From IMG/VR virus record IMGVR_UViG_3300032323_002909, positions 32,001-96,000 of that record: a stretch of DNA of 64,000 nt; one strand, 5' to 3'. Shown here in pieces: positions 677 to 61,082 of this stretch; positions within the stretch are counted from its first letter, which is position 1; each line of letters begins with the position of its first letter. The notes beneath the pieces were generated by a model. It searched no databases. It saw nothing but the letters and a program-made list of their open reading frames with translations, and was not told the origin of the DNA. A program made the position numbers and the translations under genes. The stretch is from a virus.

Positions 677-1285
677 ATGAATGTTTTGTCCGATAAATAT
701 GCTACCAACGTTTCTTTAGACGATAACGAAGATGCTGAAATCGATACTAATTCAACGATTGAAATTATATCTAATAAAATTTTATTTTATGGAGACATTA
801 CCGAATCCAATATTCTTCAGCTTAACAAAAACCTTTTTATATTGGATTCTAAACTTCAACGCCTTAAACATTCGCTCGATGGTTATGAGCCTGTTATAGA
901 ATTACATTTAAATACTTTTGGTGGTTCGGTCTATGCAGCGTTGGCAACCGTTGATACCATCCGCAATTTGAAGACCAAGGTTCATACGTATGTTGATGGT
1001 AGTGTCGCTTCTGCTGGAACATTGATAAGCATAATAGGTGGAAAAAGATTTATGGGTAGCCATGCCCACTTATTGATACATCAATTGAGTGATGGTATGT
1101 ATGGCAAATTTCAAGAGATGGCTGATACAATGTATAATTGCACGAATCTCATGAACATGTTAAAAAATTATTATAAAAAATATACCAAAATCCCAATGAA
1201 AAAATTTGATGATTTAATTAAAAAGGACATTTGGTTATCCGCTGATGAATGTCTTCAGTATGGAATTATTGACGAAATTATTTGA
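677..1285 (+). CDS. clpP: ClpP-like serine protease
   Basis: LNTFGGSV, VASAGT (Ser), LLIHQLS (His) and KDIWLSADECLQYGIIDEI motifs. Confidence 0.85.
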   Translation: MNVLSDKYATNVSLDDNEDAEIDTNSTIEIISNKILFYGDITESNILQLNKNLFILDSKLQRLKHSLDGYEPVIELHLNTFGGSVYAALATVDTIRNLKTKVHTYVDGSVASAGTLISIIGGKRFMGSHAHLLIHQLSDGMYGKFQEMADTMYNCTNLMNMLKNYYKKYTKIPMKKFDDLIKKDIWLSADECLQYGIIDEII

Positions 1286-1390
1286 ATAATGTTCTTGCTT
1301 TCACAATCCACTATGCTAGTATTTAGCACATCGAGCAAGAAAAAATGAATACGATAAACATTATTTTCTGGGGCTAAATAATAGACGATC

Positions 1391-2365
1391 ATGAGTATTT
1401 ACGACGAACAAATTAGTAGAAAACCAAACAAATATCCTTGGACAGAACAATTCATTAAAGTTATGCATGACGGTTTTTGGACTGATAAAGAATTCAGTTT
1501 TAAAACCGATTTACACCAATTCAAAACTGCATTAAACGATAAAGAACGCGAAATTATTGTCAGAACTTTATCCGCTATTGGGCAAATTGAAGTTGCTGTC
1601 AAAACATTTTGGGCTAAACTAGGAGAGAATTTACCACACCCATCTCTATCCGATCTTGGTTATGTGATGGCGAATGTTGAAGTCATACACAACAATGCAT
1701 ACGAGCGTCTATTATCCGTATTGGATATGGAAGATATTTTCGAGGAGAATCTTAAATTGGAGTGGATACAAGGACGAGTGAAGTATCTCAAAAAGTATAC
1801 TCATCGTTTCTACAAAGATTCCAAGAAACAATATTTATATGCTCTCATTTTATTCACTCTTTTTGTAGAGAATGTTTCTTTATTTTCACAATTTTATATT
1901 ATCAATTGGTTTGCTAAGAATAAAAATGTTTTGAAGGACACTGATCAACAAGTTCGTTATACAAGAAACGAAGAAGCTATCCACGCTATGGTTGGCATGA
2001 AAATTATCAATACCATTCGCGAAGAGCATCCTGAATTATTCGATGAGGAATTAGAGGAGCGTATCGCACATGAATCAGAGCAAGCGTTTTTAGCAGAAAG
2101 CAAAATCATCGATTGGATGGTCAACGGTATTGACGAGAGTGGTTTGTCTGCACCTATTCTCAAAGAATTTATCAAAAATAGGATAAATGAATCGTTGGCG
2201 GGTATCGGATTTAAAAAAGTGTTTGATGTCGATCAGACTTTGTTAGATGAAACATTCTGGTTTGACGAGCAAGTTCTTGCTCCAAACATGACGGATTTTT
2301 TTAATTCTAGACCAGTGGAATACGCTAAAAATTCACAATCTTACGACGAAGACGAATTATTTTAA
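1391..2365 (+). CDS. nrdB: ribonucleotide reductase class I beta subunit (class Id/NrdBi-like)
   Basis: Ferritin-like ligands E67, E97-x-x-H100, E160, E195-x-x-H198, plus Y104 and K71. C-terminal DFF..RPVEY. Confidence 0.95.
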   Translation: MSIYDEQISRKPNKYPWTEQFIKVMHDGFWTDKEFSFKTDLHQFKTALNDKEREIIVRTLSAIGQIEVAVKTFWAKLGENLPHPSLSDLGYVMANVEVIHNNAYERLLSVLDMEDIFEENLKLEWIQGRVKYLKKYTHRFYKDSKKQYLYALILFTLFVENVSLFSQFYIINWFAKNKNVLKDTDQQVRYTRNEEAIHAMVGMKIINTIREEHPELFDEELEERIAHESEQAFLAESKIIDWMVNGIDESGLSAPILKEFIKNRINESLAGIGFKKVFDVDQTLLDETFWFDEQVLAPNMTDFFNSRPVEYAKNSQSYDEDELF

Positions 2366-2368
2366 TAT

Positions 2369-4021
2369 ATGACAAGAGACAAATACTATTGGTTAAATGA
2401 TGACTCCATTAAATTTTTGGAGAGGGGATATCTAGAAGAAGGACAAACACCTTTATCTAGAATTGAGAAGATCGCGTTAACAGCGCAAAATATTTTAGGT
2501 ATTGAGGGATTTGCTGATAAGTTTATAGATTATATGTCTAGAGGTTATTACAGTCTTGCAACGCCTGTATGGATGAATTTTGGTAACAAAAGAGGCAACC
2601 CAATCTCCTGTTTTAATAGCCATATTGGAGACAGCATAGAAGACTTCTTGATTAAACAGGCAGAGGTCGGTATGATGACAAAAGTTGGCGGCGGCACTTC
2701 TGGATACTTTGGCGATATTAGACCACGTGGTTCTAAAATTAGCACAGGTGGGACGGCAGAGGGAGCAGTGCGTTGTATGGAACTATTCGATACTGTTACT
2801 AGTATCGTGAGTCAAGGAAGTGCTAGACGTGGCAGTTTCGCAGCTTATCTACCAATTGATCATGGTGACTTCGATGAATTTATGAAGATTCGTTCTGAGG
2901 GACATCCTATCCAAGAAATGTCTATCGGTGTAACAATTCCTGAAGGATGGATGCAGTCGATGATTGACGGTGATAAAGAAAAACGCCGCCGATGGGCAGC
3001 AGTAATTAAAAAGCGTTCTGAGACAGGATACCCATATATTTTCTTCACTGATAATGCTAATAATAATAAACCACAAGTTTATAAAGATAAAGGTTATCAA
3101 CTCAATGCATCTAATTTGTGCTCCGAAATCTTTCTTCCATCTACAAAAGACGAATCGTTTGTTTGCTGCTTATCTTCGCTAAATTTACTATGGTGGGATG
3201 AAATCAAAGAAACAGATGCTATTGAAACTTTGGTCATGTTCTTGGATGCAGTGATGACAGAATTCATCGAGAAAACAAAAGATGATAGACTTATGGAAGC
3301 TGCTCATAAGTTCGCTAAGAACCACAGAGCATTGGGTATGGGCGTTTTGGGCTATCATAGTTATTTGCAATCCAAAATGATTCCATGGGAAAGCGTGGAC
3401 GCTCATTTTGAAAATATATCTATCTTTTCGACAATTAGTGTACGTGCTGATAAAGCTACTAAATTATTAGCTGAAAAATTTGGCGAACCTGAAGTTCTTA
3501 AAGGTTATGGTCGTAGAAATACTACAACTATTGCTATTGCACCCACCACATCGAGTAGCTTCATTCTAGGTCAAGTGAGTCCAAGTATTGAACCATTGAA
3601 TAGTAATTATTTTGTGAAGAATCTTGCTAAAGGAAACTTTACATATCGCAATCCAAAATTGGTTGAGGTCTTGAATGAGAAGGGTAAAGATAATAAAGAA
3701 GTTTGGAAAAGTATTTTGATCCATGGTGGTAGTGTTCAACATTTAGATTTCTTAAGCCAAGATGAAAAAGATGTCTTTAAAACATTCGCAGAGCTTTCGC
3801 AAAAAGAAGTAGTGATTCATGCTGCACAAAGGCAACCATTTATTGACCAAGGACAATCACTGAATGTGATGATTCCAGCAAATACCAAACCAAAAGAAAT
3901 CAATGAATTGATGATTTTCGCATGGGAAAATGGAATCAAATCTTTGTATTATCAAAGAAGCTCCAATCCGTCTCAAGATTTGGCTCGATCCATTCTGACA
4001 TGCAAATCATGTGAAGGATGA
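2369..4021 (+). CDS. nrdA: ribonucleotide reductase class I alpha subunit, no ATP cone
   Basis: PISCF, GGGTSG, SNLCSEI, APTTSSS, SLYY, C-terminal CKSCEG; 550 aa. Confidence 0.95.
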   Translation: MTRDKYYWLNDDSIKFLERGYLEEGQTPLSRIEKIALTAQNILGIEGFADKFIDYMSRGYYSLATPVWMNFGNKRGNPISCFNSHIGDSIEDFLIKQAEVGMMTKVGGGTSGYFGDIRPRGSKISTGGTAEGAVRCMELFDTVTSIVSQGSARRGSFAAYLPIDHGDFDEFMKIRSEGHPIQEMSIGVTIPEGWMQSMIDGDKEKRRRWAAVIKKRSETGYPYIFFTDNANNNKPQVYKDKGYQLNASNLCSEIFLPSTKDESFVCCLSSLNLLWWDEIKETDAIETLVMFLDAVMTEFIEKTKDDRLMEAAHKFAKNHRALGMGVLGYHSYLQSKMIPWESVDAHFENISIFSTISVRADKATKLLAEKFGEPEVLKGYGRRNTTTIAIAPTTSSSFILGQVSPSIEPLNSNYFVKNLAKGNFTYRNPKLVEVLNEKGKDNKEVWKSILIHGGSVQHLDFLSQDEKDVFKTFAELSQKEVVIHAAQRQPFIDQGQSLNVMIPANTKPKEINELMIFAWENGIKSLYYQRSSNPSQDLARSILTCKSCEG

Positions 4022-10127: not shown

Positions 10128-11012
10128 TTACTTTTTAAACGTCATCGATTCGAGAGCGCTTAAATAAGGATCGTTTTCCTCTACTTTATTACTTACTCTT
10201 TCCGTAATAATTTTTTGAGTTTTTACAAAATCAGGCTTGTGTTTGCGGTTTTGTAGAGCTTGCTCCTTAATGATTTCCAATTGCTTCTTCTCTTGATTTT
10301 CAAAAAGACGCACGGTGTAATCAAAGTTTTCTTTGATAAATTTAAGAGATTTATCAGAAAGTGCTTTTTGGACGAAGTTTTTCTTCGACTCAGGGAACTT
10401 AGAAGTTTTAGCTTCGAGGAAAAGTTTAACTTGTGCGTTGTTCTTTTCTTCGGTAAGCAAGTTCAGATTGTTTTTAAGTTCAGCATTTTCTTTGCGAAGT
10501 TGATCCATTTCAGTTTTACCTTCAATGATTGCACCAGACAAAGATTTGTCCATGAGTGCATAGTCAATCGAGAATACTTTACGAAGATTTTCCAGAACTT
10601 TGAAAGCGGTTTTATTTTTAACAGCCGTTTCTAAATCTTTTTTGGGAAAAGACTCAACCAAGAATGTGTCGAGATATTCACTAATAGATTCAGTAAGTTG
10701 TTTTTTGAACTTTACAAGATCACCTTGTTGTTCTCTTTCATACTTTTTAACAACTTTAACAAGTTTAGCAGTCTTGTCTCTATCAAAAGCTTCCATGAGT
10801 TTTTTCATTTTCACAGTGCGGTCGTTATCAAGCGTGACCATGAGAGTTTTCAATTTTTCAGCATAAACTTCATCCTGTTCTAAAAGTGCTGATTCTACTG
10901 CTAGATCAATTTTACTTTCTAACGACTCTTGGATGGCTTTGACCGATTCATCGCTCAGACCCAAATTTTTTTGAATTTCTTCAGAGAAAAGATTCTGTTT
11001 GTTTTTCTTCAT
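10128..11012 (-). CDS. gp22: prohead core scaffold protein
   Basis: Coiled-coil, E/K-rich, SEYLD, C-terminal DPYLSAL; directly upstream of gp23. Confidence 0.8.
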   Translation of the reverse strand: MKKNKQNLFSEEIQKNLGLSDESVKAIQESLESKIDLAVESALLEQDEVYAEKLKTLMVTLDNDRTVKMKKLMEAFDRDKTAKLVKVVKKYEREQQGDLVKFKKQLTESISEYLDTFLVESFPKKDLETAVKNKTAFKVLENLRKVFSIDYALMDKSLSGAIIEGKTEMDQLRKENAELKNNLNLLTEEKNNAQVKLFLEAKTSKFPESKKNFVQKALSDKSLKFIKENFDYTVRLFENQEKKQLEIIKEQALQNRKHKPDFVKTQKIITERVSNKVEENDPYLSALESMTFKK

Positions 11013-11017
11013 AATAT

Positions 11018-11025
11018 TATTTATA
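11018..11025 (-). promoter_or_regulatory. T4-type late promoter TATAAATA, 5 nt upstream of gp22 ATG
   Basis: Exact T4 gp55 consensus; gp55 is encoded in the window. Confidence 0.8.
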
Positions 11026-11047
11026 GATTTAATGATATTTTTTTGAT

Positions 11048-11374
11048 TTAGAATAAAGGTTTTTCAATTTCCTGAGAAATTAATTTTTGAAGTTTATTAT
11101 TGATAATATTTGAAAGATGTTTTTGAGCATCCGCATGATGTTCGCCCAAAATACATTCAACGAATTTAAAAATTTCTGAAGATTCTTTCACGCATTTTTT
11201 GCCTGTCTTTTCTTCATTATCCATATCAGCATCTTTCTTACGTGCATAAGAACCTTTACCTTTTTTTGGTTTTTCGACTTTGGTTGCAGGTGCGAATCTT
11301 TTACGCTCCTTTACTTTAGGAGCTTTGATAGTCACCTTTCCATCTTTTTTAAGATCTTTGAATTTTTTATTCAT
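11048..11374 (-). CDS. gp67-like prohead core protein with N-terminal basic ArfA-like segment
   Basis: Lies between gp21 and gp22; C-half FVECILGEHHADAQKHLSNIINNKLQKLI resembles the gp67 helix; N-half contains VEKPKKGKGSYARK. Confidence 0.55.
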   Translation of the reverse strand: MNKKFKDLKKDGKVTIKAPKVKERKRFAPATKVEKPKKGKGSYARKKDADMDNEEKTGKKCVKESSEIFKFVECILGEHHADAQKHLSNIINNKLQKLISQEIEKPLF

Positions 11375-55697: not shown

Positions 55698-56903
55698 ATG
55701 TTTCCACAATCTCCCTTTGCTGCATCTCCGTTTGTATCGCCCTTTCCTCAAAATATAATGATAGGTAAACCACCTGTTGAAAAAATTGAGAAACGCCATT
55801 CTTATTTAAATTTTTTAGCTGATCGACAAGGATGTGGACAATGGCGAATTGGGTGGGCAGAGAACCATATTAATATGTCAAATATGGGTGAATCAACATC
55901 CGTGACGAAAATGATTTTTGATAAAGGTTGGTATCGTGACATCACAACCGTTAAATTACAACGTCAAGCATCGACAATGCAAAAAGAATTTTTTCAATTT
56001 CTTAAAAGCATCCAAGAAGAAATGGGTTTCAAAATAATCTACGAAGTTGACGATGTTGTTTTTTATGAAGAAATTCCCGATTATAATATCTTCAAAGAAT
56101 CATTTGCTAATGACGAGATAAGACAAAATTGCGTGGATATGGTTAGAATGGCTGATGAGGTCACTGTTACATGCAAATATATGCGAGACCTGTTTATCGA
56201 GAAAACAGGACAGTTTAACATTTCAGCGGTTCCGAATTTCCCACCTGAGTGGTGGATAGGTCATCAATATGATTATAATCAGATTATTCATAATCATACT
56301 AAGCATAAAAATCGTCCAAGAATTTTGTATTCTGGTTCAGGTGCTCATTTTGATGTTAAAAATAATACAAATCAACAAGATGATTTTTCCCATGTGTTGA
56401 AATTTATAATAGATAATCGATACAAATATCAATTTATTTTCATTGGTTCTTACCCACCACCATTACATAAATATATTGAAAATAAAGAAATTGAATTTTA
56501 TCAGTGGCAAACTTTAATGAATTACCCTAAATTTATTTCATCTTTGAATGTTCAAATGTTATTAGCACCTTTAATGGATATACCATTCAACAGATCAAAA
56601 TCTGATATCAAATATATTGAAGGAGCATGTCTCGGTATTCCTTGTATGTGTCAAGACATGGTAACATATCAAGATACTCCAGATTTCCTTAAATTTAAGG
56701 ATTTTGAAGACTTGGCAATAAAGACTGAATATCTTTTAAATTGGAAGAATGATAAAAAATATTATCAACTTGTGAAACAATTAAGAAAATTAGGAGAAAC
56801 TAGATTTTTAGAAAGACCTGAAAATATAGGAGCTTTTATTGAAGCAATGAATACACCATTTGGCGACCCTAGTAGAAAATATTTGAGACCTTGGAATGAT
56901 TAA
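55698..56903 (+). CDS. GT-B fold glycosyltransferase
   Basis: GCG.WR, LQRQ, YEVDD, D.VTV, VPN, LAPL...FN.SKS.IK..E; start at ATG 55698. Confidence 0.8.
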   Translation: MFPQSPFAASPFVSPFPQNIMIGKPPVEKIEKRHSYLNFLADRQGCGQWRIGWAENHINMSNMGESTSVTKMIFDKGWYRDITTVKLQRQASTMQKEFFQFLKSIQEEMGFKIIYEVDDVVFYEEIPDYNIFKESFANDEIRQNCVDMVRMADEVTVTCKYMRDLFIEKTGQFNISAVPNFPPEWWIGHQYDYNQIIHNHTKHKNRPRILYSGSGAHFDVKNNTNQQDDFSHVLKFIIDNRYKYQFIFIGSYPPPLHKYIENKEIEFYQWQTLMNYPKFISSLNVQMLLAPLMDIPFNRSKSDIKYIEGACLGIPCMCQDMVTYQDTPDFLKFKDFEDLAIKTEYLLNWKNDKKYYQLVKQLRKLGETRFLERPENIGAFIEAMNTPFGDPSRKYLRPWND

Positions 56904-57190
56904 TCTTTAGTATCTCTAGTGAACTCGGAATATTGAGCTAGAGTTGGTCGAAGGCGTTCAAACATAGCTTTTAAATTGTCATACGGTGTCTTATTCGAAG
57001 GATTATTGAAAAATCTCTCTCTGTTGTTTTGATAATAAGCTATTGTCCCTTTTAAATATGTTTCAATAGCTGCTGAAATTTTATGCATTTCAGCTATCAT
57101 CCCTTCGGTCAAAGCGTCATAATTATCATATGATGATTGAAAATCTAAACTTTCATAAATCTTGCTCAAGTCTTCAAAATACTTATCCAT
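56900..57190 (-). CDS. hypothetical late protein
   Basis: TAAATA-ATATC-ATG. Confidence 0.6.
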   Translation of the reverse strand: MDKYFEDLSKIYESLDFQSSYDNYDALTEGMIAEMHKISAAIETYLKGTIAYYQNNRERFFNNPSNKTPYDNLKAMFERLRPTLAQYSEFTRDTKD

Positions 57191-57258
57191 GATATTATTT
57201 ATCTTACATGATGACTTTTAAATAAAAATGATTTCTATTAAATACTAAATATATATAA

Positions 57259-57903
57259 ATGAGAAGTAGCGATTATTTTTTAGAAATTTCAAATATTTAT
57301 TCGAGGATCATAAATGAATCCCCTGATAATATTACAATTATTGACGATAATGGTGATCATAAAAATATATCGTATTATAACACACCAGATGCCTACACTG
57401 GTCTTATCGGTAGTGATGGTGAATATGTCTTGTCGAAAGATATTATAGGTCATAGTAATTTAATCGATCATATTTTACATCATGGAGAAGATATTATTCA
57501 AAAGTTAATAACCAATCTTGATGATATATATGATTTGCAAAGATTGGTTAGAGAAAGAATAAAAATAAGAATTTGGAAAAATCAAAAAGTTTTTAGTATG
57601 TGGGATTATTACAAGCCTTCATACGAAACTGCCATCAAAAATTCCTTAAAAGCTATAGGTCAAAATTATAAACAATATAGATATGATAATGAATACAAAG
57701 ATTATAATGACATGCCTTTATACGATACTTTTTTCGTAAATAGTTTAACGGATGAACAAAAAGAAGAGAACACGATGGCAGCAATGAAAAAAATTGAAGC
57801 AGAAAGAGCTTTAATGGATAAAATAGCTGGCGCTAGACAAAGACCATCGAATGGTGAAACGCCTTACAGAAAACCTTCTTGGATGAATAGAGAAGGGGAT
57901 TAA
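57259..57903 (+). CDS. hypothetical late protein
   Basis: TAAATA upstream; IINESPD N-terminus; RIW..K..S.W. Confidence 0.65.
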   Translation: MRSSDYFLEISNIYSRIINESPDNITIIDDNGDHKNISYYNTPDAYTGLIGSDGEYVLSKDIIGHSNLIDHILHHGEDIIQKLITNLDDIYDLQRLVRERIKIRIWKNQKVFSMWDYYKPSYETAIKNSLKAIGQNYKQYRYDNEYKDYNDMPLYDTFFVNSLTDEQKEENTMAAMKKIEAERALMDKIAGARQRPSNGETPYRKPSWMNREGD

Positions 57904-57962
57904 TATTAGCAATCTTTGTGTTTATAGCTTGCTATTTGAAATAAGGGTGATAAATAAACAAC

Positions 57963-58244
57963 ATGTCTAATAATATCCAAAACAACGATAAGCACATCCA
58001 CGGTGATGTGCAAGCCACTAATGTAACAGAAGCGACTACGCCGTTGGATGATGCGTCTTGTTGTGCTTCGGATTTTCAAGCTAGAAAGGATGCTGTATGC
58101 CGAGAATTGGTCGAACATCTAAGAAACATTCCGAGACAACAACCAGTAGGTGAAGAAATCCAAACCGTCTGGACACCATTTGTGGAGAAATTCAAAGAAA
58201 TAGGGAAACGATTCGATGAATCATTCAGAGGAATCTCCCAATGA
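57963..58244 (+). CDS. hypothetical protein whose N-terminus reads through attC-like site A
   Basis: TAAATA-AACAAC-ATG; 93 aa. Confidence 0.5.
   Translation: MSNNIQNNDKHIHGDVQATNVTEATTPLDDASCCASDFQARKDAVCRELVEHLRNIPRQQPVGEEIQTVWTPFVEKFKEIGKRFDESFRGISQ
57980..58066 (-). repeat. 87-bp attC-like site, copy A
   Basis: Minus strand: GCACAAC-AAGAC-GCATCATC...GATGTGC-TTATC-GTTGTTT; direct repeat of 58439..58525. Confidence 0.7.
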
Positions 58245-58376
58245 CATCGACAATTCCAATATAATTTCTTCAATTTTTTGTTTGATCTTCTCCTTAATAT
58301 GATCAGGAACTTCCGCACTATTCAACTTTTCGGTTAAAGTATCGATTTGTTTGATTGTTCTTTCGTAATTTGCCAT
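58221..58376 (-). CDS. 51-aa helical protein inside putative gene cassette (absent from ORF track)
   Basis: Translated by hand: MANYERTIKQIDTLTEKLNSAEVPDHIKEKIKQKIEEIILELSMSLGDSSE. Confidence 0.55.
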   Translation of the reverse strand: MANYERTIKQIDTLTEKLNSAEVPDHIKEKIKQKIEEIILELSMSLGDSSE

Positions 58377-58438
58377 ACGCTTGTTATTTGCGCTCGCGAT
58401 GATAAATCATAACGGAGGAGTGTCTAGGGGATTATTTG

Positions 58439-58525
58439 GCACAACGATAAGCACATCCACGGTGATGTGCAAGACCCAAATGTGACAGAAGCGACTACAC
58501 CGTTGGATGATGCGGCTTGTTGACA
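58439..58525 (-). repeat. 87-bp attC-like site, copy B
   Basis: Minus strand: TGTCAAC-AAGCC-GCATCATC...GATGTGC-TTATC-GTTGTGC; 6 mismatches to copy A over the internal 82 nt. Confidence 0.7.
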
Positions 58526-58547
58526 TTCATGATGTTTGTGTTATACT
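58520..58547 (+). promoter_or_regulatory. sigma70-type promoter TTGACA-N16-(TGn)TATACT of DNA polymerase
   Basis: Near-consensus boxes; ATG follows at 58554. Confidence 0.75.
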
Positions 58548-58553
58548 CGATCC

Positions 58554-61082
58554 ATGTCTTATAGAAATTGTGTGTATAACAACCGTGAACAAAAGATTTT
58601 TTTATGGACTTGGAATGATAATGGTGAGAGGGTTAAAGAGGAATGGGATTTCAAGCCATACATTCTACTAGAAGATAAAAATGGTGATGAAAAATCTATT
58701 TACGGCACCAAATTAAAGAAAAAAGAATTCAATAGTGGGTATGATCGTAATCAATTTATAAAAGATAGTAATATCAAAAGAATTTACGAGAACCTACCAC
58801 CTTACCAACAATTCTTAATTGACAATTATTGGTTTGTGTGCGAAAACGACGAATTTTCACAACATCCATTAAAAGTTGCTTATTTAGACTTGGAAAACCC
58901 GAAGGCAGATGGGTTCCCTGATCCTGTATTGGCAGATTCGGTTATCAACTTGATAACTTGCTACGATTCCTTCAGCAAAATATATCATGTATTCGGTTTG
59001 AAAAATTTCCATACGACGAGAGATGATGTGAAATATTATTGGTGTAAATCCGAACACGATTTGTTGAAATCTTTTATTAAATTCTTTAGAAAAGAAGAGT
59101 TTGATGTCATCACATCATGGAACGGTGCAGCATACGATATACCCACGTTAGTGAATCGTGTTACGTTTGAATTGGGTAAAGAATGGGCTGATAAATTATC
59201 CCCAATTGGAAGGATTTATGAGAAGACTAATCCCACTGGTAAATTTGGTATGCCCACCAAAGAATATGTCATCGAGGGTATTTCATCATTGGACTACTAT
59301 GTGATATATCAAAAATTTAATTTGGAAAAACAAGAGTCATATAAACTCGATCATATCGGAGAGGTAGAACTCGGCATTAACAAAATCCAACACGAAGGTA
59401 ATTTGTGGGAACTTTCCAAAAACGATTGGTATACTTACACCAACTACAACATACGAGATGTTGAAATTTTGGTAAAACTAGAAGAGAAAAAGGGTTATAT
59501 TTCACTATTGCGTTTCCTCGCATACACAGGATTGTGTGATTTGGAAAATGCTATCAAGACTGTCCCTCCTATGAATGGAGCTATCGCCATACGTGCGCGT
59601 ATGCGTGGAGAGTATATTCCCACTTTCATACGTCCAGTCACTGACTACAAAGCACCAGGTGGATACGTAGCAGATCCACGTATTGGATTTGCTGAAGATA
59701 TTGTATCATTCGATGCCAATTCGCTATACCCATCTGTAATGATATCTTTGAATTTATCACCAGAGACTAAAATAGGTAGGGTTGAAAAAATTAATGATAT
59801 CATCAAAATCCATCATGTATCGGGTCGAATTTTTGAGATGTCTTCGGATAATTTTAAGAAATATATCACCGAAGAAAAAGCATCATTGACAAAAGCTGGT
59901 TTCTTATTCTCGCAGAAAAAAGTTGGATTGGTTCCCGAATTCTTGGACAACCTTTACACCAAACGTAAAGAAATGAAGGGTAAAATGTTGGATTGTAGAA
60001 AAAAAGGCGATAAAGAGGGCGAACAAAAATTCGATACTATCCAGTATGCCTATAAAATTCACCTTAATTCTTTATATGGTTACATGTTAAACAAATATGC
60101 CCCCATGGGTGATGAAGACATAGGAACATCTGTTACTCTAACTGGTCAAGCTGTAATCAAAAAGAGTAATGAATTATTTTTGGATTACATGACACAGAGA
60201 CTCAACACTACTGTCGATATTGAAAAATCATTGATATACAACGATACTGACGCATTATATGTCTCGTTGAGCATGTTGAAAGCTAAAGGTTTGGTGTTGA
60301 AAGATGGTGATAAGGTATCGACAGAATTTTACAAAGAGTGTCAGGATATTGAAAATCACATCAATAGCGGTATTAACAAATGGGCTATCAAGAGTTTGAG
60401 AAGTAATGACCCTAGATTTGTATTCAAACGTGAATCCATTTGTGACCGTGGTATCTTCATTGGTAAGAAATATTATGTCCTACACACTCTCGACGAAGAA
60501 GGTGTCGTTACTGATAAATTCAAATATAAAGGCGTTGATGTTGTTAAAACTACTATGCCTAAAAAGGTCAAACCATATGTCAAGAAAGTCATTGAGCATA
60601 TGATCCTATCAAAATCGTTGAAAGAAACCAACGATATTTTCAATGAAGCATACGAAGCATTTAAAAATTTATCAATTGAGGAAATATCCAAAATATCTGG
60701 CATGAATAATTATGCAGAATATTCTGCAAGATGTAATGGTATGACAACCTGTAAAGGTATGCCATCTCATTTAAAAGCCGCATATTATCATGATTTAATT
60801 TTAGACCAAGTTGGATTGGTATCGAAATATGATAAATTTAAAACTGGTGATAAGGTTCGAATCGTATACGTGAAAAAACCCAATCGTTATGATATTGATA
60901 TGATAGGATTCAAAGACCGATGGATACCAGAATATGATAATATTTTCAAGGTGGATTATGAAAAAATGTTTGGTAAAATATTCTATGCTGCCATCGAAAG
61001 ATTTTATAATGCCGTAAGGTGGACATTACGAAAACCAACTGAAAACTTAGTCGTTGAAATTGAGGATATTTTTGGAGAATAA
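58554..61082 (+). CDS. gp43: family B DNA polymerase
   Basis: Exo DLE, WNGAAYDIP, YNIRDV; pol SFDANSLYPS, KIHLNSLYG, YNDTDA, KKYY; start at ATG 58554. Confidence 0.96.
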   Translation: MSYRNCVYNNREQKIFLWTWNDNGERVKEEWDFKPYILLEDKNGDEKSIYGTKLKKKEFNSGYDRNQFIKDSNIKRIYENLPPYQQFLIDNYWFVCENDEFSQHPLKVAYLDLENPKADGFPDPVLADSVINLITCYDSFSKIYHVFGLKNFHTTRDDVKYYWCKSEHDLLKSFIKFFRKEEFDVITSWNGAAYDIPTLVNRVTFELGKEWADKLSPIGRIYEKTNPTGKFGMPTKEYVIEGISSLDYYVIYQKFNLEKQESYKLDHIGEVELGINKIQHEGNLWELSKNDWYTYTNYNIRDVEILVKLEEKKGYISLLRFLAYTGLCDLENAIKTVPPMNGAIAIRARMRGEYIPTFIRPVTDYKAPGGYVADPRIGFAEDIVSFDANSLYPSVMISLNLSPETKIGRVEKINDIIKIHHVSGRIFEMSSDNFKKYITEEKASLTKAGFLFSQKKVGLVPEFLDNLYTKRKEMKGKMLDCRKKGDKEGEQKFDTIQYAYKIHLNSLYGYMLNKYAPMGDEDIGTSVTLTGQAVIKKSNELFLDYMTQRLNTTVDIEKSLIYNDTDALYVSLSMLKAKGLVLKDGDKVSTEFYKECQDIENHINSGINKWAIKSLRSNDPRFVFKRESICDRGIFIGKKYYVLHTLDEEGVVTDKFKYKGVDVVKTTMPKKVKPYVKKVIEHMILSKSLKETNDIFNEAYEAFKNLSIEEISKISGMNNYAEYSARCNGMTTCKGMPSHLKAAYYHDLILDQVGLVSKYDKFKTGDKVRIVYVKKPNRYDIDMIGFKDRWIPEYDNIFKVDYEKMFGKIFYAAIERFYNAVRWTLRKPTENLVVEIEDIFGE

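Follow-up and report, generated by a model that had tools for sequence, protein, structure and literature searches.

Two direct repeats upstream of a phage DNA polymerase gene

The sequence examined here is a window of 64,000 nt corresponding to bases 32001-96000 of the 150,461-bp IMG/VR virus record IMGVR_UViG_3300032323_002909, which is 73% complete; window coordinates are used throughout. In the gap between a conserved reverse open reading frame (ORF) of 96 aa (56900-57190) and the gene for a family B DNA polymerase, which begins with an ATG at 58554, lie two direct repeats with the look of attC sites, the recombination sites of integrons, and a small ORF between them. A repeat search of the window placed them, as 82-nt copies with 93% identity, at 57982-58063 and 58441-58522, the distance from start to start being 459 bp. 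When their R boxes (see below) are included they extend to 57980-58066 and 58439-58525 (87 nt each), which is the pair of 87-bp repeats, 459 bp apart, described in the initial annotation. A 20-nt word from the repeat core occurs twice in the window, against none expected from 100 shuffles. That annotation had also proposed a search for further copies and for a tyrosine recombinase: sequence and covariance model scans of the whole 150-kb record recovered just these two copies of the site, and no tyrosine recombinase was detected in the record.

An assembly artefact is excluded because a 192,659-bp ENA scaffold from a separate assembly (ERZ28594331 scaffold_22) is identical across the locus over 6,282 bp. 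The G+C content (GC) of the window is 0.336, that of the DNA unit delimited by the repeats (the cassette, below) 0.40, and that of the repeats themselves 0.48-0.50. Near and distant BLAST searches of the locus against GenBank phages gave no match, and a search of Rfam gave no meaningful family match.

Anatomy and strand of the sites

An attC site is recombined as a folded bottom strand, on which an R' box (RYYYAAC) pairs with R'' (GTTRRRY), spacers measure 5-6 nt and the whole spans 57-141 nt; an extrahelical base, usually G, lies at position 16 inside the L'' box, a conserved extrahelical T lies at position 23 or 24, and a 6-bp stem between the two is required (Nivina et al. 2016, PMC5027507). 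A later study confirmed the 6-bp rule and located the bulges at distances of 9 and 16 nt from the R box (Nivina et al. 2020, PMC7439510). The window repeats, here called sites A and B, resolve as follows (R1 and R2 are covariance models introduced in the next section).

57980-58066, plus strand: attC site A, with the plus strand as bottom strand (from sequence, minimum-energy fold and models R1 and R2)
57980-57986, plus strand: R' of site A, AAACAAC, predicted crossover between A57985 and C57986
57987-57991, plus strand: first spacer of site A, GATAA
57992-58005, plus strand: 5' arm of site A, GCA-CATCCA-CGG-TG
58006-58038, plus strand: variable loop of site A, ~33 nt
58039-58054, plus strand: 3' arm of site A, CG-CCG, T, TGGATG, A, TGC, with bulges T58044 (position 23) and A58051 (position 16)
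58055-58059, plus strand: second spacer of site A, GTCTT
58060-58066, plus strand: R'' of site A, GTTGTGC
58439-58525, plus strand: attC site B, the resident site beside the polymerase gene (from sequence and models R1 and R2)
58439-58445, plus strand: R' of site B, GCACAAC, its first six bases belonging to the cassette
58503 and 58510, plus strand: bulges T58503 and A58510 of site B, whose spacers are GATAA and GGCTT
58519-58525, plus strand: R'' of site B, GTTGACA

Site B has the anatomy of site A apart from R' (GCACAAC), R'' (GTTGACA) and the second spacer (GGCTT). With numbering that starts at the 3' end of R'', position 16 is an unpaired A and position 23 an unpaired T, and a 6-bp stem separates them. 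The plus strand thus reads, in order, AAC, a 5-nt spacer, 3 bp, the position-16 bulge, 6 bp, the bulged T23, at least 3 bp, the loop, a 5-nt spacer and GTT. The conserved triplets are AAC at 57984-57986 and 58443-58445 and GTT at 58060-58062 and 58519-58521. GCACAAC and GTTGTGC each match the RYYYAAC/GTTRRRY consensus at six of seven positions, and both boxes recur in a bacterial array beside an integron integrase (below). In both sites the AAC/GTT boxes, the 5-nt spacers, the bulges at 16 and 23, the 6-bp stem and the length of 87 nt agree with the published rules. Folded to minimum energy, the plus strand adopts the attC hairpin, whether computed as DNA or as RNA; its energy is just modestly better than that of shuffled sequences (z-scores -1.2 to -2.5).

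The initial annotation had listed a CAAC/GTTG closing stem, 5-nt spacers, an 8-nt box facing a 7-nt one and a second bulge. All of these are present, the second bulge coming after 6 bp and the loop measuring ~33 nt. It had read them on the minus strand, however, and in this respect it needs to be corrected: the architecture is as described, but the minus strand is the top strand, and the bottom strand, which folds with G-T wobbles, is the plus strand.

Conservation of the structure

Two covariance models were built, R1 from phage sites and R2 from 97 bacterial sites only. R1 gives site A 108 bits and site B 104 bits. The scan of the phage record with an attC covariance model that the initial annotation had recommended was made with the lineage-specific R2, which assigns 71.1 bits to site A and 71.4 bits to site B (E about 1e-15), on the plus strand only and with no other match in the record. 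R2 also detects every other phage site, and it revealed additional long-loop sites at three loci of related phages, L037, L038 and L053. L037 and L038 had been considered as solitary units inserted at non-attC sites, an idea dropped when R2 found the long-loop attC sites beside them.

The phage sites fall into types. Relative to type 1, to which the window sites belong, the stems of type 2 (carried by L045, L046, L047 and L037) are fully compensated, CATCCA/TGGATG having become CACATA/TATGTG and CGG/CCG having become CGC/GCG, with both bulges unmoved. Type 3, found by R1 in a 154-kb relative (G002), has GCT/AGC in place of GCA/TGC, different loops and the canonical G at position 16. Compared with type 1, type 2 and type 3 sites have 4-5 stem pairs changed with compensation, and both bulges are kept. 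Over 20 phage sites, 96.8% of the main stem is paired, with two-sided compensation at four pairs; sliding the structure by 1-3 columns, as a control, lowers pairing to 17-61%. The 97 bacterial sites show compensatory changes in 13 of 14 stem pairs, with 97.9% of cells paired, in an alignment that was fitted to the model, so that the count of compensations leans towards structure.

Homologous sites in Verrucomicrobiota integrons

The exact type 1 core pattern has no match in 185,579 bacterial species genomes. A search of IMG/VR, metagenome contigs and bacterial genomes with exact type 1 patterns returned just the contig of L004 (a close relative of the window phage, see below) and two chance matches, L036 and L044; the type 2 pattern has no match in IMG/VR. 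A degenerate pattern of the 3' arm covering types 1 and 3, on the other hand, finds over 120 stretches of bacterial DNA; among the 80 titles listed, 74 are from Verrucomicrobiota, including Luteolibacter, Akkermansiaceae, Verrucomicrobiaceae, Terrimicrobiaceae and Chthoniobacter. In 60 of these bacterial loci R1 finds full-length matches, 97 in total, which frequently form same-strand arrays with a spacing of 0.3-1.2 kb. The arms of the window sites are identical over 18-20 nt to those of some bacterial sites.

The most informative locus is in a verrucomicrobial genome, G007, where an array of ~10 kb (L205, 1741-11508) contains 14 sites at E ≤ 1e-5, or 17 at E ≤ 0.01, all on the plus strand. 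A 478-aa plus-strand ORF, 1.8 kb past the last site, reaches 325.7 bits with TIGR02249, 'integron integrase' (cut-off 265), and contains domains PF13495 and PF00589. The side and strand of this integrase are those expected if the plus strand is the bottom strand, with cassette ORFs on the opposite strand and intI divergent, and the cassette ORFs of the array do lie on the minus strand, starting 5-12 nt from R'. A second locus of the same genome, L206, encodes a 341-aa integrase (L206:3048-4073) with 387 bits on TIGR02249. Integrons in Verrucomicrobia had been recorded before (Cury et al. 2016, PMC4889954). By their sequence and structure, the phage sites are assigned to the attC family of Verrucomicrobiota chromosomal integrons.

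As a side observation, G007 contigs C49, C25, C59, C64, C45 and C63 carry at least five to six tyrosine recombinases with near-equal Pfam scores, a few kb from attC sites. The two recombinases tested are integron integrases above the TIGR02249 cut-off, and one at L207 is below it. Multiple integrons in a single genome would be unusual, and the binning of this metagenome-assembled genome may contribute.

The crossover signature

When a cassette integrates, the six bases of R' that follow the cut end up belonging to the neighbouring cassette, and the R'' of a cassette should pair with the R' at its own far end and not with the one beside it. This is what we found in the window: R'' GTTGTGC (58060-58066) pairs at seven of seven positions with the far-end R' GCACAAC (58439-58445), and at five of seven with the adjacent R'. 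The initial annotation had pointed out this relationship, noting that on the minus strand the GTTGTGC of site B is exactly complementary to the GCACAAC of site A. We could verify it: the former lies on the left border of site B, the latter on the right border of site A. The same rule holds in two other phage arrays with different boxes. In L004 the cross-cassette pair is GTTAGCT/AGCTAAC (7/7). In G002 it is GTTCGGC/GCCGAAC (7/7), nested inside a resident pair, ACACAAC/GTTGTGT, which is the picture that would be expected after integration of a single circle into a lone attC.

With four free positions in each cross-cassette pair, such a match has a chance of about 1 in 256 per case. In the bacterial array L205, pairing across the cassette is 7/7 in nine of 13 neighbouring pairs, while adjacent 'own' pairs average 5.1/7; the three widest gaps are among the four exceptions, which probably conceal sites that escaped detection. 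The phage arrays thus obey the pairing rule of the bacterial array, and in the same orientation. Homologous recombination between repeats does not predict this cross-cassette pattern of R' and R''.

Cassette turnover among related phages

A search of IMG/VR with the N-terminus of the polymerase returned 32 related loci. L004, whose polymerase is 96% identical to that of the window phage, has four copies of the site upstream of the polymerase gene, enclosing three different units of ~0.5 kb; its orthologue of the terminal site B (3884-3976) has R'' and downstream sequence identical to those of the window. L003 (polymerase 97% identical) has no copy of the site and a 467-aa reverse ORF instead. 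Since L004 has three units and L003 none, the gap upstream of the polymerase gene is hyperplastic. The gap extends over 57223-58559 in the window, where it holds a 214-aa ORF and one cassette, over 1912-3419 in L003 and over 2363-4001, with three cassettes, in L004. A homologue of the 214-aa ORF is located elsewhere in L008, between a gp46-like gene and a glycosyltransferase gene.

Sites also occur away from the polymerase gene. A 187,848-bp T4-like contig (Ga0502770_0000007), with portal, gp15 and baseplate genes, has three (L037, L045 and L046), L047 is beside gp25, and further site-bearing loci are L038, L049, L053, L054 and L055. In ten related loci the unit is built alike: a site is followed by 0.35-1.1 kb of variable DNA, which contains one to three reverse ORFs, and then by a conserved region of ~70 nt ending in GGCACAAC. 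At the contig end of L055 (763-802), GGCACAAC is followed by the start of another attC (AACGAATAGGCCATCCACGGCG), with yet another variant of the arms, incomplete because the contig stops there.

The clearest instance of mobility is provided by one cassette, with a forward ORF of 79-85 aa and a reverse ORF of 83 aa, whose variable part is ~99-100% identical in L004, L047, L053 and L054. It is upstream of the polymerase gene in L004 and beside gp25 in L047, a phage whose conserved genes are just ~65-70% identical. The adjoining sites and left flanks differ among the four copies, so that one cassette is found in four different neighbour contexts, and order is not fixed either: the recurrent cassette stands before a certain other cassette in L004 and after it in L054. 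At L037, R2 reads two long-loop attC sites (10542-10673 and 10923-11051) with GC ~0.5 against ~0.35 in the surroundings, together with a 116-aa forward ORF. The parts that coincide with these sites match verrucomicrobial loci (L173, 83% over 119 nt; L116, 78% over 133 nt), and L037 10542-11051 looks like host cassette DNA acquired recently.

The initial annotation had suggested a comparison of relatives for gain or loss of the unit at exact breakpoints. Cassette turnover is seen at the polymerase site, where L004 has three other cassettes; an empty site with an exact AA/C junction was not found among the relatives. Those of the L045 flank are too distant for an empty-site comparison, and those of the G002 locus that lack sites differ by a 1.9-kb block with duplications. 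Within this block, which is absent from close relatives, a 106-aa ORF lies beside the two type 3 sites (L058 of G002, 944-1968, minus strand); this ORF repeats, in diverged form, the initial ~90 residues of the 308-aa gene downstream, joined to a C-terminal tail copied from the upstream helicase-like gene.

The cassette and its promoters

The remaining features of the locus are listed below.

57986-58444, minus strand: gene cassette of 459 bp, delimited by AA/C crossovers
58221-58376, minus strand: cassette ORF of 51 aa, an orphan (ORFan) from the ORF list, reading towards attC A
58377-58438, strand not assigned: conserved 5' region of the cassette ('ext'), kept in related cassettes, with a putative promoter function
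58520-58547, plus strand: sigma70-like promoter of the DNA polymerase gene, TTGACA, 16 nt, TATACT, with a TG extension (11 of 12 matches in a promoter scan)
57963-58244, plus strand: forward ORF of 93 aa, a putative gene running through attC A from a start on its left, residues ~8-36 being attC translation
57919-57979, strand not assigned: remnant of a type A cassette 5' region, 88-92% identical to L004 3342-3491 and 3826-3969

On its top (minus) strand the cassette consists of the remainder of R', the promoter-bearing 5' region, the 51-aa ORF and attC A. The ORF, which the initial annotation had correctly described as 51 aa long and pointing towards site A, is oriented like the cassette ORFs of the bacterial array. 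Its predicted product belongs to no Pfam or PHROG family and finds just itself among 5.8 billion proteins; 12 cassette ORFs compared with Pfam, PHROG and PADLOC likewise gave no match. The 'ext' region offers a candidate sigma70-like promoter for this ORF on the minus strand (TAGACA 58426-58421, 16 nt, TATCAT 58404-58399; 10 of 12 matches in the promoter scan). A weaker candidate on the plus strand was recognized by eye (TTGTTA, 17 nt, TAAATC). The region is 88-94% conserved at the same place in the cassettes of L037, L038, L045, L046, L047, L049 and L055. A local minus-strand hairpin inside attC, followed by a T-rich tail, gives a terminator-like score. From these elements, each phage cassette looks like a self-contained transcription unit.

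The -35 hexamer of the polymerase promoter, TTGACA (58520-58525), overlaps R'' of site B, and the ATG of the polymerase ORF is 6 nt past the -10 hexamer. A near-consensus promoter that stops so close to the start codon implies that the polymerase mRNA would be leaderless or nearly so, without a Shine-Dalgarno element. Several forward ORFs beside attC sites in related loci share a comparable layout: TTGACT, 16-17 nt, a TAAATA-like hexamer, 5-7 nt and ATG. The sequence at 57919-57979 precedes other attC sites in L004 and L047, and no reverse ORF follows it in the window.

A protein search with the 93-aa forward ORF returned 12 ORFs (P0001-P0012, 78-121 aa) that resemble one another only over the ~33 residues which the site encodes, their C-termini being unrelated. 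Their common stretch, NDKHIHGDVQ..TTPLDDAACCAS, is the translation of attC, from which gene callers have thus made a pseudo-family. The forward ORF was rejected as a protein family on this ground, the shared part being limited to the stretch encoded by attC.

Class membership

[quoted passage not shown] The window has two plus-strand sites 459 bp apart. No tyrosine recombinase (PF00589) is detected at E ≤ 1 in the 150-kb record, the window included, as the initial annotation had noted for the latter, or in five related phage records, among them two complete genomes and the site-bearing G002. The locus therefore differs from a complete integron, in which intI, attI and the cassette promoter (Pc) stand beside the array, and the earlier description of it as CALIN-like, served by a host or distal IntI, is appropriate. 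Other mobile elements were considered. An IS200/IS605-like element was rejected, there being no match to the Y1 HUH transposase (PF01797) in the record and a hairpin at one end of the cassette only, and readings as a diversity-generating retroelement, a CRISPR or an intron were dismissed on anatomy.

Discussion

In our judgement it is highly probable that the repeats are genuine integron attC sites, that 57986-58444 is one integrated cassette and that the two sites constitute a CALIN upstream of the polymerase gene of a T4-like phage. The attC family, together with the host-like cassette DNA in a relative, makes Verrucomicrobiota the likely host phylum. As no tyrosine recombinase was detected in this or the five related records, the acting enzyme would probably be the IntI of the host.

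The mechanism would be as follows. During infection, plus-strand phage DNA in single-stranded form would fold into the attC hairpin. The host integron integrase would then bind the R and L boxes, with the bulged bases as guides, and cut between A and C of AAC, excising cassettes as circles or inserting them at the resident site beside the polymerase gene or at other phage attC sites. With a promoter region of its own, each cassette could be expressed without an integron Pc. Homologous recombination by the phage between near-identical sites probably adds to the shuffling. By extension, a clade of T4-like phages of Verrucomicrobiota might maintain a pool of promoter-bearing cassettes with phage-adapted attC sites and hijack host IntI during lytic infection to swap them between phage loci, with co-infecting phages and with the host array, in which case the cassettes could be counter-defence genes. 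We offer this broader proposal tentatively, with slightly more doubt than assurance.

Several observations weigh against an integrase-driven cassette at this locus, or at least complicate it. The first is the lack of a recombinase gene described above, in a record that is 73% complete. The window's own cassette is found just as identical copies of the same locus. No empty site with an exact AA/C junction was found, the relatives without sites differing by larger block replacements. The leftmost R', AAACAAC, fails to pair with the terminal R'', GTTGACA, unlike what a simple single insertion would leave. In the sole deviation from the published attC rules, position 16 is A in the window sites and not the usual G, which is found only in the type 3 sites of G002 and one type 2 site. 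Homology between copies often continues ~60 nt past the crossover point, across the promoter region, and one junction does not look site-specific: at L054 149-153 (compared with L037 10262 and L004 3483) what looks like a 5-nt microhomology deletion has joined the variable part of a cassette to the R'' of another via TTGTG, with loss of one attC site. General recombination therefore acts too, and the attC sites are indeed mosaic between genomes.

Some of these facts also favour the alternative that survives best, in which a piece of a host array was acquired once, by illegitimate or homologous recombination, and has since been inert, reshuffled only by the general recombination of the phage and never touched by an integrase. 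The absence of intI from every phage record searched, the presence of just two sites in this genome, the whole-block replacements in site-less relatives, the mosaic sites and the microhomology junction would all be accommodated. What such a relic would not be expected to show is an intact R'/R'' signature in three phage arrays with different boxes, the nested insertion of G002 among them, a signature that only the AA/C cut yields. Cassette order also varies between phages, one cassette occupies four neighbour contexts, the cassettes are AT-shifted and carry promoters, and short-loop type 1 sites have no exact match in bacterial genomes, which argues for long residence in phages and for turnover. 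We regard a passive relic as unlikely.

Promoter early stem-loops (PeSLs) of T4-type phages are short motifs combining a promoter, a stem-loop and a Shine-Dalgarno element that flank swapped ORFs and form mini-circles (Comeau 2014, PMC4122927). The repeat could be viewed as a cassette of this kind, made of a terminator and a promoter motif, with ORFs shuffled purely by homologous recombination and a coincidental likeness to attC. The hyperplastic location between conserved genes, the sigma70-like promoter in the 5' region of the cassette and the terminator-like hairpin with its T-rich tail on the minus strand fit this description, as does the association of PeSLs with swapped ORFs and mini-circles (PMC4122927). 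Nevertheless, the hairpin is not a short GC stem but an 87-nt bulged structure homologous to sites beside bacterial integron integrases, the promoter lies outside the repeat in a separate segment, there is no Shine-Dalgarno element, and a model based on homology alone leaves no place for R-box complementarity across the cassette. We give this interpretation very little credence.

Least credible of all is conservation of the repeat for a plus-strand product, be it a structured 5' RNA element or the 33-residue N-terminus of a family of small, leaderless early proteins: although 12 database ORFs begin just upstream and read through the site, with an in-frame ATG supplied by most of the independent left flanks, several behind a TTGACT-type promoter, and although several differences between copies fall at third codon positions, coding cannot explain the conservation of the site, because types 2 and 3 lose the type 1 frame (that of type 2 running into stops), a stop interrupts the terminal L004 copy and site B lacks a start codon, while the hairpin is kept in all, the C-termini are unrelated, the bacterial homologues are located in integron arrays and no Rfam family matches.

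Integrons count as devices of bacteria, and recent studies describe the arrays as libraries of anti-phage defence genes. In the present case, a T4-like lineage of virulent type carries cassettes bearing the attC family of its probable host phylum, and the sequence record displays turnover at the level of cassettes, between divergent phages and between loci. A concrete site-specific mechanism can thus be offered for part of the long-noted plasticity of hyperplastic regions in T4-type phages, along with a prediction of host phylum for an uncultured phage group. Three attC types, a docking site at the polymerase promoter and a series of named cassettes make up a defined set of substrates on which the activity of host IntI on phage DNA in lytic growth could be assayed, and with which one could ask whether genes flow both ways between phages and host arrays. 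Were phages indeed to draw on host IntI for a cassette pool of their own, virulent phages would possess an integron-based engine of accessory gene turnover, and counter-defence cassettes might face the defence cassettes now known in bacterial integrons. On the practical side, gene calls should be treated with caution where translation through an attC site creates a false 'protein family'.

Comparison with known systems

In role, PeSLs (Arbiol 2010; Comeau 2014) are the nearest phage-specific analogue. Both they and the window sites are repeats around small ORFans in hyperplastic regions of T4-like phages, with a promoter beside a hairpin and a proposed movement of ORFs as mini-circles. PeSLs have no known site-specific enzyme, whereas the window sites are bulged attC sites with a defined AA/C crossover and homologues in bacterial integrons. 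Of the features that define a PeSL, the locus shares the hyperplastic location and a promoter-like site; it departs from them in its 87-nt attC hairpin, its promoter in a separate segment and its want of a Shine-Dalgarno element.

The repeats of the Vibrio cholerae superintegron (VCRs) are a homogeneous family of long-loop attC sites with bulged bases that bound hundreds of small cassettes of unknown function, some of which have promoters of their own. The phage sites resemble them as a highly homogeneous attC family bounding small cassettes; VCRs are of another sequence family and another host phylum, and are always linked to a chromosomal intI.

The likeness to the chromosomal integrons of Verrucomicrobiota is the closest. 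It extends to the attC family, by sequence and structure, to strand logic and crossover signature, to cassette sizes of 0.3-1.2 kb and to the R boxes themselves, GCACAAC/GTTGTGC and GCCGAAC/GTTCGGC being common to phage and bacterial sites. The differences are that the phage has no intI, attI or Pc; that its cassettes are AT-shifted (GC 0.40 versus ~0.5-0.6 in the bacterial array); that a promoter-bearing region of ~65 nt separates R' from the ORF, compared with 5-12 nt in bacterial cassettes; and that the type 1 loop is short, giving an 87-nt site where bacterial sites with the same arms measure ~133 nt.

Finally, CALINs in virulent phages are already known. A survey of 10,705 genomes of isolated phages predicted 17 of them with a generic model; some sites were assayed with IntI1, most were dissimilar to one another, and the exchange of cassettes between phages and bacterial integrons via bacterial IntI was the proposed route (Qi et al. 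2023, PMC9892861). Like those, the present locus comprises at least two attC sites without an integrase in a presumably non-temperate phage, and it is an unusually well-supported further case. It differs in that the family is homogeneous and tied to one host phylum, with several loci in an uncultured T4-like clade, and in that comparative data display cassette turnover, in a system known here from sequence alone. What is new is therefore a homogeneous attC family common to the phages and one host phylum, its spread over multiple loci in this clade, cassettes that bear promoters, and comparative evidence of their turnover.

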